Source: a virus | Virus record (IMG/VR): IMGVR_UViG_3300020469_002640 | Coordinates: 1 to 64,000 of that record | Length of the DNA: 64,000 bases | Strand: one strand, 5' to 3' | Shown here: positions 1-47,508 of the stretch, piece after piece | Numbering within the stretch: position 1 is the stretch's first letter | Layout of the letters: the number at the start of each line of letters is the position of its first letter | Position numbers and translations under genes: made by a program | Notes under the pieces: generated by a model | Seen by the model: only the letters and a program-made list of their open reading frames with translations | What the model was told of the DNA's origin: nothing | The model's database searches: none

Positions 1-1716
1 GAGAAGGTAATATGGAACGACGCTACTAAAGCATATGTTCAAGGTGTTATTAAGAAAGCAGCTGCAGAAGCTACTAAGCTGATACAAGCAGAGCTTAAAG
101 ACACAGACATTGTTCAGTGGCTTGTATCTTGTAGAGATATTCTCACTAAAGCAAATGGATCTTCAACACTAGGTAGGATTGCTAATATTATTGATCGGCA
201 GTCTATTAACCCGCAGTTTGCACCTGACAAGAGTATTAGGTATGCAATGCCTAAGACTTTCTTTAAAGGTATGAATGCTAAGAAGGTTACAAAGCTTAGA
301 GACTACAGAACTGGTAAAGACAGTCTTGAGAGAGATGAGTTTGACGGATGGTCAGGTGTAAGTACTACTAATATTTACATTAAAACAGATGAGCAGTTTA
401 ATAAGTACAAAGATTTGTATTTACTACAACAAGCTCAAAAAGACGACTATCAAGAAAACATTGTAGTTATCAGTCCTCCTACTATTGCTATACCTAAAGC
501 TATTAGTTTGTTGGCTCCTGGACCAGAGAAAGGGAAAGCAATGGCAGCATACAATGCTGAAGTTACTAGACAACAAGCTAAGTTTGCATACTTTCAATCT
601 TCACCACATGTTAAAAGCTATGATGAGATAGAAGTTAGCGATGAGTGGCTAGAAGACTACAAGAAAGAAGCAGCTGCAGCTGAGAAAGTTGCAACGTTTG
701 AGAACATTACACCTGCAGAGCGTCGTAAGATAGAAGAGCGCATGGTTGCTTTTACTCTTAGAGAAGACAAGAAGCGTAATGATGGTAAAAACTACACTTG
801 GGATAAGATCGAGCCTAAAGCTAAAGAACTTATGCAAAGTGAGAATACTATTTATTATGGTAGTACTGTTGACGAAGCAAAGTTTATGCTTGCTGCTGAT
901 ATTATTGGTTGCTATGCTCCTACATTTGATAAAGTTTTTCCTGAAAATACATGGTATTCTTGGAACGAGTGCAAGCAAGGTAAAATGTTTTACTATGAGC
1001 AACCGCCTGTTCGTGTATACTCAACGTATGGGGAAGACAAAGGTCAACCTGTAGAATGGGCTAGACCTGACAAGATGCAAGATCAGTGGGATACGCCGCA
1101 GCTTATTAGAGTTAGAGAAACGTATATTAAACACATTAAGAAGAACCCTAACTGTAAACACATTGATGAGTTTTTCTTACAACTAAATTCAGATGGAGGA
1201 TACACTATGGATTCATACTTAATTAAATGGCTTACTGGTAAAAAGATCCAGGCGGTCAAAGACATGCGACACTTGTCTGCGCTTAAACACATTAACCCTG
1301 AACTCTTTGAGAAGTTTAAGGAATGTTATGAAGCTGCAGAACTAGTCACTTCCAAGTCTGGAAAGTGGTTTGATATGGGTGACGAAGATGACTCTATAGT
1401 TACAGAAATCAAGAAGAATGTAAAAAGGATTGCTGCATTCCAAGCTTATTGCGAGGAAGTTACAGATCCTGCTTTGATTGCTGCTAAGAGTAGAGAGTTG
1501 TTTGTGTTAGATATGCCTAATGCAGGTGCATATGATACTAAACTTGTTTCTAACTGCCAAGAGTTGGTAGAGTACAACGAAGAAGTATCTACTTTGTTAT
1601 CTACTATAGGTGAGTTTGATGTACATCCTAACGCAGCTCCAGACATTAGTCCAGAGCTACAGAAGGAGATTAGTGTATACCTAGATGCAAAAGATAGACT
1701 CCAATGGGAAAGCTAG
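1..1716 (+). CDS. rIIA: rIIA-like protein, C-terminal part (5'-truncated by window)
   Basis: Frame is open from base 1 (EKVIWNDATKAYVQGVIKKAAAEA...) into the 247..1716 ORF, so the Met at 247 is internal. Call rests on size and position upstream of a clear rIIB; the N-terminal HATPase domain would lie outside the window. Confidence 0.65.
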   Translation, partial: EKVIWNDATKAYVQGVIKKAAAEATKLIQAELKDTDIVQWLVSCRDILTKANGSSTLGRIANIIDRQSINPQFAPDKSIRYAMPKTFFKGMNAKKVTKLRDYRTGKDSLERDEFDGWSGVSTTNIYIKTDEQFNKYKDLYLLQQAQKDDYQENIVVISPPTIAIPKAISLLAPGPEKGKAMAAYNAEVTRQQAKFAYFQSSPHVKSYDEIEVSDEWLEDYKKEAAAAEKVATFENITPAERRKIEERMVAFTLREDKKRNDGKNYTWDKIEPKAKELMQSENTIYYGSTVDEAKFMLAADIIGCYAPTFDKVFPENTWYSWNECKQGKMFYYEQPPVRVYSTYGEDKGQPVEWARPDKMQDQWDTPQLIRVRETYIKHIKKNPNCKHIDEFFLQLNSDGGYTMDSYLIKWLTGKKIQAVKDMRHLSALKHINPELFEKFKECYEAAELVTSKSGKWFDMGDEDDSIVTEIKKNVKRIAAFQAYCEEVTDPALIAAKSRELFVLDMPNAGAYDTKLVSNCQELVEYNEEVSTLLSTIGEFDVHPNAAPDISPELQKEISVYLDAKDRLQWES

Positions 1717-2564
1717 CCTTTGTAACTAGGAGAGCATTTGATATTAGATTTTCAGGTAGATCGACGGATTTCATATCTCCGTCGTTTGGTTATGGCTGCT
1801 TGTATAACTGTTCATACTGTTATATGAAGCGCCATAAACCTGATGGTCTATCAATTGCTAAAAACACAGGCGATATACTTACTGAAATAAACAATCATGC
1901 TTATTTCACACCAGTAACAAAGCCAAACCAGACGCATCCTGTTTTTACTACGTATGACATTAGTTGTAACGAAGACTTTGCTTTGCATGCTAAGTATCAC
2001 GACTGGGAAAGGATCTTTGAATTCTTTAGAGATCATCCTGTTGCGATGGGTAGCTTTGCTACTAAGTATGTAAATCCAAATCTAATTAAATTTGACCCGC
2101 AAGGTAAAATACGTATTAGATTTAGTCTTATGCCACAAAGTAGATCCGACATTCACGAGCCAGGCACATCTAAAATTATTGATAGAATAAAAGCTATTAA
2201 TGCATTTATAGATGCAGGCTATGATGTACATGTTAACTTTAGCCCCGTAATTTTATACGATGGCTGGATGGAAGAGTACGAAGAATTGTTTGATATGCTT
2301 AATGACTATGTAGACTACAAAGAACAGGTTCTAGCAGAAGTTATATTCTTGACACATAATGAGAATAAACACAAAGCTAATCTTGAAAAGCATCCGCATA
2401 CCGAGGATGATTTATGGAAGCCAGAAATACAAGAGCCTAAAATCTCTCAGTATGGAGGTAGAAACATAAGGTATAATAGGCACTTAAAATCTGCTTACAT
2501 GCATGGGTTTAGGCTTAGACATGACGAAATAATACCTTGGAACACAATTAGATATATGTTTTAA
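1704..2564 (+). CDS. splB: Spore photoproduct lyase family radical SAM protein
   Basis: CxxxCxxC motif GCLYNCSYCY, then YDISCNEDF (position of the SPL H-donor Cys), ATKYVN, RIRFSLMP, HEPGTS..RIKA, HVNFSPVI and EVIFLTH, matching the SPL motif order. Confidence 0.85.
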   Translation: MGKLAFVTRRAFDIRFSGRSTDFISPSFGYGCLYNCSYCYMKRHKPDGLSIAKNTGDILTEINNHAYFTPVTKPNQTHPVFTTYDISCNEDFALHAKYHDWERIFEFFRDHPVAMGSFATKYVNPNLIKFDPQGKIRIRFSLMPQSRSDIHEPGTSKIIDRIKAINAFIDAGYDVHVNFSPVILYDGWMEEYEELFDMLNDYVDYKEQVLAEVIFLTHNENKHKANLEKHPHTEDDLWKPEIQEPKISQYGGRNIRYNRHLKSAYMHGFRLRHDEIIPWNTIRYMF

Positions 2565-2863
2565 TGAACACTTTAAAAACAAAAACAGGAAAGCCTATGA
2601 CCCGCAAACAATTGTGGGCTCGTAGACGAAACTGGGAATTAAAAATGTTGCGATACCTTACACATGAACTTGATTTTAGATTTCATTGCAGATGCGATGA
2701 AACTAAACAAGGAGATGGAGGTCAAATTAGATCTGCAACACTTTCCCTAACAGAGTTAGATAAATATAAGAAAGCTATTGAACTATTGAAGAGTTTAACA
2801 GACAATTGGTCTGCAGAACACCAACAATTAAAACACAAAATAGATTTCTCTAAATTTGTCTAA
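2564..2863 (+). CDS. Hypothetical protein (99 aa, basic N-terminus)
   Basis: TAATG overlap with the SPL stop; fills the gap to rIIB. Confidence 0.7.
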   Translation: MNTLKTKTGKPMTRKQLWARRRNWELKMLRYLTHELDFRFHCRCDETKQGDGGQIRSATLSLTELDKYKKAIELLKSLTDNWSAEHQQLKHKIDFSKFV

Positions 2864-2909: not shown

Positions 2910-4070
2910 ATGATTACACTAAACGTAATTGATGATGTGATCTCAGGATCATATGGAGATAAAAACTTCTCCGTCACGTACAGCAAAGAGCTGTATGAAA
3001 GTATGATGGTACTTAGAGGATTAGCAGATGATGCTGTTAGTATTGCAGAGTACAAAGATATTTTAGAGCAATTTAGTAAACTTGCTGTAGAAGATTATAC
3101 TAAAACAATTGAAACTGAGTGTGAGCACATTCATGTGAACAAAGCTACAGGCCAGTTTTTTCTTAAGAGTAATGGTGTAGTGTCAAGTTATCCTATGCCA
3201 CAAGCTTTGGTAGATAGAATATTTGAGTCTATCGACAAAGGCTTATCTTTCTTACCGCTTGTTAAGATGTGGACTAGGTGGCTGCGTAACCCTATACTTA
3301 GAAAGAAAGGTGTAGATGCTGACTTTTCAGAGCGCTTCTTTAACTTTGTAAATCTAAAATATGTACACCCTAAGCTAAAAGAGGAGCTCATGGAAGAGCA
3401 CGGCCTTAGCGAAGAGGTTGCAGACCGTAGAGCTACTATGTATCAGATGAAGATTACTAGCGAGGGTTTACTTAACGGCTACAAAGTATCTAGAGAAATC
3501 TTACATAAGTTTGATAGAGAAACTGGCGAGCAAGTTGACCGTTACAAACGTACATTTAATCCTGATACGGGTGAGATCGAGGGCGATGGCCTGCCTGAGC
3601 ACGTAGAGGACCGCTTATTTGAACCTGCAGTTATGGGTTCAAGTGGAGATGCGTTCTATTGCGAGGGTGTAAACGGCTATGGCTCTCCTCAACATTTTAT
3701 CAAAGTTGGATGCAGACATAGATTGCCAGATTGGTCTCATGTAGATACAAACGACAATCGCTCTTGTGTTAAAGGCTTACACTTAGGTGGTCTTAAGTAT
3801 ATCGCATGCTACAGCGGCGAGATACACAACATCTTTGTAGATCCTATGCACATTGGTGCTGTGCCTGATGACAATACAGGTGCTATTAGATGCTTAGAGT
3901 ATTTTGTTCACTCTTCTCTTGTAGGTGTCAACGGTTCTATCTATCATAGCTCTACTTATGCAGCTATGACTGATGAGCAGTGGGCAGACATGCGAATTGA
4001 AGCAGTAACAGAGTATTCAGAGTGTAAAGAGTCTTGCGACAGAGATGTAGCAGAGCTTAACGCTATATAA
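2910..4070 (+). CDS. rIIB: rIIB-like protein
   Basis: ITSEGLLNGYKV, then C-terminal VDTNDNRSCVKGLHLGGLKY...VDPMHIGAVPDD..IRCLEYFV, matching the rIIB CSxGLH...VxPxDxxxVPxD pattern. A-rich leader. Confidence 0.85.
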   Translation: MITLNVIDDVISGSYGDKNFSVTYSKELYESMMVLRGLADDAVSIAEYKDILEQFSKLAVEDYTKTIETECEHIHVNKATGQFFLKSNGVVSSYPMPQALVDRIFESIDKGLSFLPLVKMWTRWLRNPILRKKGVDADFSERFFNFVNLKYVHPKLKEELMEEHGLSEEVADRRATMYQMKITSEGLLNGYKVSREILHKFDRETGEQVDRYKRTFNPDTGEIEGDGLPEHVEDRLFEPAVMGSSGDAFYCEGVNGYGSPQHFIKVGCRHRLPDWSHVDTNDNRSCVKGLHLGGLKYIACYSGEIHNIFVDPMHIGAVPDDNTGAIRCLEYFVHSSLVGVNGSIYHSSTYAAMTDEQWADMRIEAVTEYSECKESCDRDVAELNAI

Positions 4071-4107: not shown

Positions 4108-4851
4108 ATGAAAATAGCACTAATAGATGCAGACAGCCTACTGTATTATGAGATGGGTAAAGATACCCTAGAAGAGGCGATGGCGGGAATAAATGACAGA
4201 ATAACAACTATACTTAATACTACAAAAGCAGATGCTTATTTTGGATTTTTAACAGAAGGAAAATGCTTTAGATACAGAATTGCTAAAACAAGGCCGTACA
4301 AATACAACAGAAAACTTAGTACTAAGCCTCCAATCTTTTATGCATTACGAGAGTATATAAAACAAAGATGGGGCTTTAAAGGTATTCTAGGCTTAGAAGC
4401 AGATGACTGTGTAAGTGTTTATTCTACAAAAGTAGCAGAAACAAAAGGACAATCATATGTAATATGCAGTCCTGATAAAGATGTTCTTAGACAAGTGCCA
4501 GGAAAGCATTTTAATTTTCAAAAAATGGAATGGGTTAATACATCAGACGAAGATGCTAATAAGTTTTTGTGGATGCAAACACTTATGGGAGATTCAACAG
4601 ATGGTATACCCGGTATTCCAGGGCTAGGCGCCAAAACAGCTGAAAAAATTATTAATGCAAACGATGGAACTACATCACATGAGCAAGATGTTTTAAAAAT
4701 TTATGTAGAAAAGTTTGGTCAATACGATGGAATTTGTAAATTTACAGAGACGTTCAAACTTGTCTATTTACTCAAAACTGAGGAAGACATTCTTTATAAC
4801 ATACGGAAACCTTTAGAGCCAATAGAATTTATAAATTATCTTAATTCTTAA
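4108..4851 (+). CDS. 5'-3' exonuclease / flap endonuclease (T7 gp6 / T5 D15-like)
   Basis: IDADSLLY, YKYNRK, LEADD, SPDKD and the H3TH motif GDSTDGIPGIPGLGAKTAEKI. Confidence 0.92.
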   Translation: MKIALIDADSLLYYEMGKDTLEEAMAGINDRITTILNTTKADAYFGFLTEGKCFRYRIAKTRPYKYNRKLSTKPPIFYALREYIKQRWGFKGILGLEADDCVSVYSTKVAETKGQSYVICSPDKDVLRQVPGKHFNFQKMEWVNTSDEDANKFLWMQTLMGDSTDGIPGIPGLGAKTAEKIINANDGTTSHEQDVLKIYVEKFGQYDGICKFTETFKLVYLLKTEEDILYNIRKPLEPIEFINYLNS

Positions 4852-46473: not shown

Positions 46474-47508
46474 TTAAAATATTATATAATTAATTCCTAC
46501 ACTAAAGTTGTGCCACTGTCTATTCCAATATTTATTGTATCTACCTTCTATAAACACACCTAAACTTTTATTAAATCTATATCCATATATAAGTCCTGCT
46601 GAATAGTCTAACCACTGTCCGTTATTAAACTTGTGATAAGAGTATGTATTGTCTGTATCTATATGATAAGGCATAATATTACCCCAGCTATGAAACCAAA
46701 AATCTTTTGTAAAATGATAATAATCAAATCCTAATACTGCAGAATACTCTACTGTGTTAGATAAAGCATTTCTTTGCTTTTCTACATAATCATCTATTAC
46801 TTGTGGTATTACAACTTCTTCCCATACTTCTTGGCTATTTGCTACTATTTCTCCACTGGGTGCTGAATATTGTCCATCTAATGTTATATTGTATCCCTCT
46901 TGCAGTGCCAAATATGTATAGTGTAATGTCCCATTGTCCAGCACCCAATCTGCCAGGGGGTCAAAACCATATGGCTCTGCAAGCCTTTGAACAGCTCCAA
47001 TATTAAACGATAGTTTACCTTCTTTTATTTTTAACCTAAATCTTTCTGACGCTTCAAAATATTTTATATCTGCAAACCCATCTTCTAAATACTCTACTTT
47101 GCTAACCCACTTATCTGCAACATAACGTACAAAGTGGTGTTGATTAGTATAATTAATTCCTAATCGTCTTACAAAATCAGCTTCGAACAAATACTCAAAA
47201 CCATCAACTCTACCAATGGTTGCGGCATCAGAATAAGAATTCTCTGTACCATTATAAAAAGTGTTGGCTCTGTTCTCATATCCAAATCGTTTTATCTTTC
47301 TAATACCTATAGATATATTGTAGTCAAACGGCGTTTTAACAACTTGCTCTTGCAGTGTGCCAGATGTTACAGACCATATTTGATCATCTCCCATAGATGT
47401 GCCTCCATTAATAGCTGCATAAAATGTAGAGTACTTAAATATTTTATTAAGTCCTTGAGCATTTCCTAAAAAGGGAATAAACAATAATATGACTAACAGT
47501 CTTTTCAT
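46474..47508 (-). CDS. Outer-membrane beta-barrel protein
   Basis: Signal peptide MKRLLVILLFIPFLGNA|Q. Amphipathic aromatic-rich strands. C-terminal strand NFSVGINYIIF ending in Phe (BAM beta-signal-like). Confidence 0.8.
   Translation of the reverse strand: MKRLLVILLFIPFLGNAQGLNKIFKYSTFYAAINGGTSMGDDQIWSVTSGTLQEQVVKTPFDYNISIGIRKIKRFGYENRANTFYNGTENSYSDAATIGRVDGFEYLFEADFVRRLGINYTNQHHFVRYVADKWVSKVEYLEDGFADIKYFEASERFRLKIKEGKLSFNIGAVQRLAEPYGFDPLADWVLDNGTLHYTYLALQEGYNITLDGQYSAPSGEIVANSQEVWEEVVIPQVIDDYVEKQRNALSNTVEYSAVLGFDYYHFTKDFWFHSWGNIMPYHIDTDNTYSYHKFNNGQWLDYSAGLIYGYRFNKSLGVFIEGRYNKYWNRQWHNFSVGINYIIF

Follow-up and report, generated by a model that had tools for sequence, protein, structure and literature searches.

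Why should a virus whose host probably forms no spores carry a gene of the spore photoproduct lyase (SPL) family, and what would the product of such a gene do? The question is raised by an open reading frame (ORF) of the IMG/VR virus record IMGVR_UViG_3300020469_002640, which comprises 88,499 bp and is rated 100% complete by CheckV; its first 64 kb (64,000 nucleotides) were analysed here and are hereafter referred to as the window. The ORF lies close to the start of the window (Table 1). A first-pass annotation, made from the sequence alone, had described its product as an SPL-like radical S-adenosylmethionine (SAM) protein and had proposed that the phage may use it to repair the spore photoproduct (SP) in its own DNA without light. 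The observation is confirmed by the present analysis and the interpretation is supported only in part. The gene, carried by an uncultured marine crAss-like phage, is a new short, accessory, phage-borne form of a known enzyme family; to judge from its sequence, the product is probably functional as a minimal version of the family's enzymes, with a chemistry that very probably resembles that of SPL. On balance, it is likely a lyase that acts on an SP-type thymine dimer and needs no light. Its family, fold, residue conservation, purifying selection and accessory status are results of the analysis; the chemistry, the precise lesion, the DNA acted upon and the ecological gain are inferred. A literature search at the level of titles and abstracts yielded no description of a phage-encoded SPL-family protein of such kind, SPL being mentioned merely in a reference or a table in PMC3765255 and PMC4760082, and a passage of a 2025 paper calls the gene still undescribed in non-spore-formers (PMC12029717).

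Family, fold and active-site residues

Searches with hidden Markov models (HMMs) identified TIGR03886, the NCBIfam model 'spore photoproduct lyase family protein' (lyase_spl_fam), as the best match of the 286-residue protein (312.5 bits, E-value 3.4e-93, model positions 61-346 of 346). The Pfam family for SPL, PF20903, was also matched above its gathering threshold of 27 (88.5 bits, E-value 5e-25), with protein residues 9-285 falling on model positions 65-337 of 338. Both family matches are far beyond chance expectation. TIGR03886, one of the two models that the first-pass annotation had put forward for comparison (the other being TIGR00620), is matched with a score below its curated cut-off (discussed below). 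The protein is assigned to a TIGR03886-like branch outside the Bacillus SplB orthologue group. Model positions 1-60 of TIGR03886 are unmatched, the start of the ORF being the first start codon downstream of an in-frame stop, and when the 88.5-kb record was searched as a whole in six frames, one match (model positions 58-346) and no separate N-terminal SPL piece were obtained.

The predicted fold agrees with the family assignment. An AlphaFold2 model built from a 44-sequence alignment has a mean predicted local distance difference test (pLDDT) score of 96.1 and a predicted template modelling (pTM) score of 0.92. The top six Foldseek matches of this model are all SPL entries, the best being 4FHF, the PDB entry of SPL with bound SP (E-value 2.7e-20; query-normalised template modelling (TM) score 0.89), and the next family is RlmN with a TM score of 0.44. 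VIA-align likewise aligned 276 residues with 4FHF (Z 31.6, root-mean-square deviation 1.9 Å), the runner-up fold being RlmN (Z 14.6). TIGR03886, PF20903, Foldseek and VIA-align therefore all point to SPL as first annotated, and the best hits in the HMM and fold searches belong to SPL rather than to other radical SAM families. VIA-align pairs model residues 1-286 with residues 58-341 of the SPL chain; because the alignment covers only this part of the chain, the phage protein corresponds to SPL minus about 57 N-terminal residues. The trimmed N-terminal domain noticed earlier is thus borne out by both the model match and the fold.

Residues were mapped on the SPL of Geobacillus thermodenitrificans (4FHC; hereafter Gt SPL, with the native residue number equal to the chain index minus 27) by phmmer (E-value 5e-14) and by a 44-sequence profile alignment (E-value 1.7e-33), so that the mapping is one of HMM sequence alignments and not of residue-level structural superposition. 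Conservation was assessed in 121 sequences, comprising the window protein and its 120 best database homologues (73-94% identical), and the roles of the residues in SPL are those given in passages of PMC3467042 and PMC3742179. Cysteines C32, C36 and C39 align with the cluster cysteines C90, C94 and C97 of Gt SPL, and this CX3CX2C motif is kept in 120 of the 121 sequences, the remaining one being N-terminally truncated. The first-pass annotation had recognised the intact motif and the tyrosine following it; its estimate of the motif position, about residue 33, was right in placing it early, the exact start being C32. Two tyrosines accompany the cluster, Y38 inside the motif (Gt Y96) and Y40 directly after it (Gt Y98). 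The former (Y97 in Bacillus subtilis, Bs) touches the adenine and ribose of SAM and affects catalysis (PMC3467042, PMC3742179), while the latter (Tyr99 in Bs) is described as a radical relay (PMC3742179). The sequence YDISCNED begins at residue 84, which places its cysteine at C88, and the earlier suggestion that this is the hydrogen-atom donor of SPL holds in the alignment, where it falls on C140 of Gt SPL, equivalent to C141 of B. subtilis (PMC3742179). With Y38, Y40 and C88, the hydrogen-transfer chain of SPL is retained in full.

The substrate-binding residues are similarly conserved. In Gt SPL, the backbone of the S76-S79 loop holds the 3'-thymine, R193 and E268 contact thymine O4 and hold the 5'-dihydrothymine, Y339 binds O4 and N3 of the latter, K174 contacts the SAM carboxylate and S195 contacts SAM (PMC3467042). 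By sequence alignment, the thymine-binding residues R193, E268 and Y339 and the S76-S79 loop are retained in the phage protein as R139, E212, Y284 and S17-S20, with S17 and S20 kept in all sequences except the truncated one. The tip of the predicted C-terminal beta-hairpin, Q249-Y250, aligns with R304-Y305 of Gt SPL; Q249 thus replaces R304 and the aromatic tip is retained, residue 250 being Tyr in 119 and Phe in 2 of the 121 sequences. R256 and Y257 of the hairpin are invariant. Overall, the kept residues are invariant in the whole set, except for the one truncated sequence and Y250F in two.

Distribution, selection and relatives

Of 4,149 candidates from a search of 5.8 billion proteins, 3,989 matched at E <= 0.001, the best 120 of which are all 246-290 aa (amino acids) in length; a library clustered at 50% identity contained 871 representatives at this same threshold, of which 80 reached E <= 1e-30. 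Close relatives are carried by at least 594 IMG/VR contigs. When 50,697 GenBank phage records, a set from which near-identical records may be absent, were searched by tblastn, neither the window protein nor a CX3CX4C relative had a match. Gene contexts were examined in the best 80 of the at least 594 IMG/VR loci, which show at least three arrangements: the SPL-like gene stands between rIIA- and rIIB-like genes in 33 loci, and elsewhere either at a distance of about 5 kb from a primase or as the gene that comes next after a resolvase-like one. No partner is universal among the 283 clustered neighbour ORFs of the 80 loci, the largest cluster being rIIA-like (31 loci). In a second context (the group of loci L014-L038, for example L014:1055-1885), genes for a DUF932 protein of about 257-276 aa and for an ORF of about 85 aa come after the SPL-like gene; the DUF932 neighbour (Pfam, 30 bits) occurs in 26 loci and the small ORF in 21.

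The ratio of nonsynonymous to synonymous substitution rates (dN/dS, NG86) of the SPL-like gene is 0.056-0.126 in the 13 usable pairs of 80, as compared to 0.047-0.091 for rIIB, 0.074-0.335 for the FEN-type exonuclease gene and 0.137-0.511 for the C-terminal part of rIIA (rIIA-C). The values are comparable to those of rIIB and below those of rIIA-C, and at distant syntenic loci the SPL-like proteins remain 73-76% identical against 32-37% for rIIA-C. Where present, the SPL-like gene is under strong purifying constraint. A radical SAM enzyme acting on a non-DNA substrate, or a decaying relic of SPL, is for this reason hardly credible: the missing N-terminal sub-domain speaks for such a reading, but it has against it dN/dS values of 0.06-0.13, the invariance of the catalytic and thymine-binding residues, the beta-hairpin with its aromatic tip and the intact copies on at least 594 viral contigs.

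Scanning one genome per species yielded at least 581 cellular relatives, the best 80 of which are distributed among Bacteroidota (47, including 34 Cytophagales), Pseudomonadota (10), Actinomycetota (8), Myxococcota (8) and others (7). Long forms make up most of these 80, and their cluster motif does not appear before residue 84; the long form of Rufibacter, taken as a control, matches TIGR03886 at positions 2-346 with 489.6 bits and passes the cut-off. Eleven of the 80 are short forms (284-301 aa), nine of them with a CX3CX4C motif instead of CX3CX2C; the carriers are Cesiribacter, Neolewinella, a Legionella, a Rickettsiaceae metagenome-assembled genome (MAG), a Burkholderiales MAG and two Paracaedibacteraceae. 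The CX3CX4C proteins, the copies of these cellular carriers being chromosomal, form a large sub-clade of the short forms that includes P0125, P0126, P0133, P0140, P0160, L087-L090, L093, L100, L107, L120 and L136, and in Odyssella the CX3CX4C short SPL gene follows metK (SAM synthetase). A prophage check of eight neighbours in four short-form genomes returned MetK, an IS240-type transposase fragment and a bestrophin, the rest having no match or a weak one. The other two short cellular forms are 72-76% identical to the phage protein and are found on a 5.2-kb contig of a 'Bacteroidetes bacterium' MAG (L084) and on a 120,283-bp contig of a 'Rickettsiales bacterium' MAG (L085). Both contigs probably come from phages and were placed in bacterial MAGs by binning; their host labels are untrustworthy.

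A quick IQ-TREE phylogeny of 78 rows, in which the window protein was joined by 41 metagenome proteins and by 36 loci from among the 80 cellular ones, rooted at the midpoint and without a Firmicutes outgroup, groups the short forms in one clade of 45 rows (SH-aLRT 99) and the long cellular forms in a separate clade of 24 rows (support 87), with nine rows outside both; one 333-aa row on a long branch sits within the short clade. Because all short forms fall in one clade, the N-terminal loss looks like one old event, to which no direction is assigned. Among the short relatives, P0170, P0183 and P0187 start within an apparent C-terminal part of an intein, just before the third cluster cysteine, and such starts would fit a radical SAM motif into which an intein or a split intein has been inserted. 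In another relative, P0122 (451 aa, 57% identity), the short SPL body is preceded by a fused DUF4326 domain (41 bits) at the N-terminus.

Phage, host and gene context

The features of the window are listed in Table 1. Positions 1-330 of the record are repeated at 88170-88499 with few mismatches (2 aa differences in 110). In view of this terminal repeat of about 330 nt, the genome is probably circularly permuted or terminally redundant, despite being labelled linear in IMG/VR. The rIIA-like gene begins at record position 87078 and runs across the joint; its full-length homologues have a median length of 917 aa in 31 loci (about 930 aa in relatives). Its stop is overlapped by the start of the SPL-like gene by 13 nt, and the stop of the SPL-like gene shares 1 nt with the start of orf99. 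As orf99 is present in 4 of the 80 SPL-bearing loci, it is no fixed partner. The genes belong to a plus-strand replication module, the upstream part of which encodes PolA, a DnaA-C helix-turn-helix protein, an SNF2/DEAD helicase, a DnaB-like helicase, AAA_24 and a primase, and which continues with the resolvase-like nuclease, the rIIA-like protein, the SPL-like protein, orf99, the rIIB-like protein and the FEN exonuclease.

Table 1. Coordinates of the SPL-like gene, of its mapped residues and of other features of the window (residues after the equals sign are those of Gt SPL)
Feature	Position	Strand	Basis or remark
rIIA-like GHKL-ATPase protein, C-terminal part	1-1716	+	spans imperfect ~330-nt terminal overlap
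Short SPL-family radical SAM gene	1704-2564	+	286 aa plus stop
S17-G18-R19-S20 loop	1752-1763	+	aligns with Gt S76-K77-P78-S79
Radical SAM [4Fe-4S] motif C32-x3-C36-x-Y38-C39-Y40 (CLYNCSYCY)	1797-1823	+	alignments
Cys88 codon	1965-1967	+	aligns with H-atom donor C140 (Gt)/C141 (Bs)
K121 (= K174), R139 (= R193), S141 (= S195)	2064-2126	+	profile alignment
E212 (= E268) and T217 (at R273 position)	2337-2354	+	profile alignment
Predicted beta-hairpin, strands 243-247 and 253-257	2430-2474	+	AlphaFold2 model, alignment
Tyr284 codon (= Y339)	2553-2555	+	profile alignment
orf99, no family match	2564-2863	+	Pfam/PHROG scans
rIIB-like protein	2910-4070	+	PHROG 609/2886
5'-3' (FEN-type) exonuclease, replication module	4108-4851	+	PHROG 107, E 1e-51
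825-aa protein with Por_Secre_tail sorting domain (PF18962) of the type IX secretion system (T9SS)	47505-49985	-	38.6 bits, cut-off 27

The large terminase is up to 42.5% identical to those of crAss-like phages and has matches in 159 GenBank phage records, among them those of Bacteroides, Flavobacterium and Cellulophaga phages; PHROG matches were also obtained for the portal and major head proteins. T9SS is a system of the Bacteroidota. Because of the crAss-like terminase and the T9SS sorting domain, the host is very probably a non-sporulating member of the Bacteroidota, which agrees with the non-sporulating host presumed in the first-pass annotation. A run of giant ORFs occupies the minus strand at 5762-36297 (1842, 4329, 753, 1104 and 2137 aa), presumably the virion RNA polymerase or cargo proteins expected of a crAss-like phage; the 1842-aa ORF, the sole giant ORF scanned, has one PHROG match, of unknown function. 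The sequencing runs that hold at least half of the sequence words are labelled marine or viral metagenomes, plus one with a coded organism label. Contig pieces 100% identical to 1665-1934, 1666-2113 and 2136-2366 are present in three RNA-labelled runs of three studies, where DNA carry-over is possible; these runs were found using the SPL gene itself and no claim of transcription is made.

Searches of the record found neither a photolyase gene nor a match to T4 endonuclease V (Pyr_excise), so that the SPL-like gene is its sole recognisable lesion-reversal function. Such a function could also benefit the host chromosome in the manner of an auxiliary metabolic gene, a UV-damaged host being repaired so that infection proceeds. 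None of the 47 Bacteroidota among the best 80 of the at least 581 cellular relatives belongs to orders recognised as marine Flavobacteriia, and a marine host may therefore lack an SPL copy of its own. Against a benefit to the host, the gene is part of the replication module of the phage, and its translation is coupled to that of phage genes. Host and phage DNA are indistinguishable as substrates, and the proposal, which we regard as improbable, is compatible with a lyase acting on SP-type dimers.

The gene context also bears on the alternative of a DNA base-modification enzyme acting on hypermodified thymidine, like gp53 of Pseudomonas phage M6, a radical SAM isomerase of thymidine hypermodification and the only phage radical SAM enzyme studied so far that works on thymine derivatives of DNA. 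According to a passage of PMC8989533, the authors used SPL to model gp53, whose substrates are DNA-borne derivatives of thymine. Nevertheless, gp53 (480 aa) has no match to an SPL family of NCBIfam at E <= 0.001, its best matches being the PA0069, mobile pair B and Rv2578c families, and BLASTP aligns it with the window protein over only 44 residues around the cluster motif (E-value 0.007). The record yielded neither a ThyX gene nor one for a ThyA-like protein, and therefore no source of 5-hydroxymethyldeoxyuridine (5-hmdU) is visible. The 25 other ORFs scanned with Pfam and PHROG, mostly of the replication module, include no kinase, pyridoxal phosphate (PLP) enzyme or glycosyl/amino-acid transferase, and these neighbour scans, which gave replication, rIIA/rIIB and nuclease genes only, contain none of the partners of a 5-hmdU cluster, the kinase and the Pplase not having been searched by models of their own. 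Since, in addition, no neighbour is common to all gene contexts, a modification enzyme is highly improbable.

Proposed lesion repair and comparison with known systems

If the phage enzyme is a lyase for SP-type dimers, its [4Fe-4S] cluster, held by C32, C36 and C39, would cleave SAM, and the 5'-deoxyadenosyl radical would take a hydrogen atom from a flipped-out, methylene-bridged SP-type thymine dimer, the methylene bridge of which would then break; Cys88 would return the hydrogen atom and Tyr40 would pass the radical towards SAM. Such a direct reversal of the lesion would not require light. The most likely repair target would be the incoming or replicating DNA of the phage itself, because the gene is proposed to be transcribed with the replication genes. 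The gene is an accessory cassette of some marine crAss-like phages of Bacteroidota, missing from their close relatives.

Several observations weigh against this assignment. The score of 312.5 bits lies below the curated cut-off of TIGR03886 (437.55), and TIGR04070 (photo_TT_lyase), the model named 'spore photoproduct lyase', is missed by a larger margin (90.2 bits, cut-off 400). The first 57 or so residues of SPL's N-terminal alpha/beta domain are missing, and the literature search found no biochemical test of any TIGR03886-type protein. Two basic residues of SPL for which a role in holding the intra-lesion phosphate has been proposed, R273 and K309 (PMC3467042), are lost, being replaced by T217 (fixed in 120 of the 121 sequences) and N254 (in all 121); R256, two residues past N254, might stand in for the lost contacts. 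SP itself is stated in a passage of PMC3231322 to arise in DNA that is dry when irradiated and to be unseen in physiological aqueous DNA. The gene is also frequently absent. In a comparison of sister loci anchored on the rIIB-like gene, 76 loci show both rIIA-C and rIIB, of which 31 carry the SPL-like gene between the two (gap 870-1194 nt) and 45 have them abutting (gap 33-279 nt) with no SPL-like gene in the fetched flanks. Searches of 14 long records with an SPL-less junction, each taken whole, found the gene elsewhere in one, and 9 of 10 sister genomes that are at least 90% complete are without it. The SPL-like gene is thus optional (accessory) in the marine crAss-like lineage.

A further observation of this kind comes from the cellular neighbourhoods, which were analysed with Pfam for 112 flanking ORFs of 56 loci (6 of 62 loci with full flanks were dropped as their SPL ORF was not called). 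The TIGR03886-type gene adjoins a distant SPL-family gene in 9 of the 112 flanking ORFs by Pfam and in 8 by BLASTP. The second gene encodes a protein of 357-371 aa with 22-25% identity and the motif CPAHCQYC, and the four second genes tested all have TIGR04070 as their best match (285-324 bits, full model). The pairs are tandem or divergent and occur in Bacteroidota, Acidobacteriota and Deinococcota (L091, L095, L096, L116, L119, L141, L149 and L162); such TIGR03886/TIGR04070-like tandem pairs in non-sporulating bacteria are apparently a new observation. As the two paralogues are kept side by side, different substrates are suggested, and the TIGR03886 and TIGR04070 branches may accordingly differ in what they act upon.

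These data raise the alternative of a repair lyase whose target differs from the canonical intrastrand 5R SP and might be an inter-strand dimer or some other pyrimidine dimer of the methylene-bridged or dry-state kind, with the TIGR03886-like and SplB branches dividing the work. It is retained, as an unlikely alternative, because of the diverged tandem paralogues (8-9 of 56 loci, in three phyla) and the changed phosphate contacts, which are replaced by an invariant Thr and Asn. Many cellular members of the branch also lack an equivalent of C140, the corresponding column of the 44-sequence alignment A1 (37 short forms and 7 long-form metagenome proteins, with none of the named cellular genomes) holding N, E, T and Y as well, and inter-strand photoproducts are reported in a passage of PMC3231322, citing Douki et al. 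2003, to increase in A-form DNA. On the other side, the residues holding both thymine bases in the SPL-SP complex are all kept, the fold is near-identical to that of SPL (Z 31.6) and the tandem pairs could be plain duplicates or a heteromer. The preferred function remains that of an SP-type dimer lyase. Regarding related proteins, passages of PMC12029717 report a UVC-induced 'spore photoproduct lyase family protein' in Curtobacterium, and its authors invoke a B-to-A transition of DNA in dried cells and SP in dry DNA; the protein bears the product name of TIGR03886 and may belong to that model.

The 56 cellular loci show no conserved partner, the most frequent flanking families being DoxX (9), the SPL paralogue (9), ABC_tran (6), AAA_21 (6), Peptidase_M28 (4) and DinB_2 (4), and no photolyase family is among the 25 most frequent of the 86 Pfam families flanking cellular SPL. 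SOS regulation was also considered, 'splB' (COG1533) being reported in SOS regulons in passages of PMC3323433 and PMC8565304. Upstream of the 80 cellular genes, the Bacteroidetes LexA motif CTAA-N5-TTAG was found in none (background 0.006 per 270 bp) and the LexA motif GGA-N5-TCC in seven (background 0.072 per 270 bp). The LexA motifs thus show no enrichment upstream of the cellular genes, and the published SOS splB is not used as support because it possibly belongs to another COG1533 family.

What benefit might a phage derive from such an enzyme? Sunlight is a major driver of virus decay in surface water, and decay models count cyclobutane dimers and lean on host photoreactivation. SP-type dimers could form in the dense DNA of the capsid (as the first-pass annotation had supposed), on drying in sea-spray aerosol or on freezing in ice, drying in aerosols and freezing being conjecture as sources of SP. 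The minimal-SPL cassette may occur, at different genome sites, across many lineages of marine phages and also in a few bacteria that live inside cells or are exposed to desiccation. That SP-type dimers are a real class of virion damage, and that one minimal-SPL lineage has spread as a mobile dark-repair cassette, is a tentative and rather doubtful proposal. If true, it would mean that virions suffer a second class of lesion and that a route of repair is open at night or at depth. At the rIIA-rIIB junction, the presence/absence polymorphism offers a natural experiment on a link with habitat, and the 286-aa form may serve as a smaller scaffold for studies of SPL chemistry.

Among the known systems compared, SplB/SPL of Bacillus and Geobacillus (PDB 4FHC, 4FHD and 4FHF) shares with the phage protein the partial TIM-barrel radical SAM fold and C-terminal beta-hairpin, the cluster motif, the equivalents of Y96, Y98 and C140, the SAM contacts K174 and S195, the thymine contacts and the Y305 tip. 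The two differ in that identity is about 21-22%, SPL has a complete N-terminal alpha/beta domain (a four-stranded sheet and three helices) which the phage protein lacks, and R273, K309 and R304 of SPL are Thr, Asn and Gln in the latter. The phage copy belongs to a virus of a probably non-sporulating host; it stands in a replication operon, while B. subtilis splB is under a forespore-specific sigma-G promoter according to a passage of PMC12029717. The TIGR03886 long forms of non-sporulating bacteria (343-350 aa), such as those of Rufibacter, Spirosoma and Pontibacter, are 42-51% identical to the phage protein, and the shared T217, R256, Y257 and K262 are nearly invariant in alignment A1 of the branch. 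Many long forms are without the Cys88 equivalent, which the phage protein keeps; the Rufibacter one passes the cut-off of 437.55, which the phage protein, lacking model positions 1-60, does not. M6 gp53 resembles the phage protein in being phage-encoded and related to SPL by fold prediction, and it acts on thymine derivatives in DNA, as the phage protein would, but it requires a 5-hmdU pathway and partner enzymes (a hydroxymethylase, the 5-HMUDK kinase, aGPT-Pplase and a PLP enzyme) not seen in the crAss-like phage. Finally, T4 endonuclease V (DenV), a glycosylase/AP-lyase for cyclobutane dimers, is unrelated to the phage SPL-like protein in fold and chemistry, yet it is the classical example of the kind of system proposed here, a phage gene for the dark, post-infection repair of UV dimers in phage DNA.

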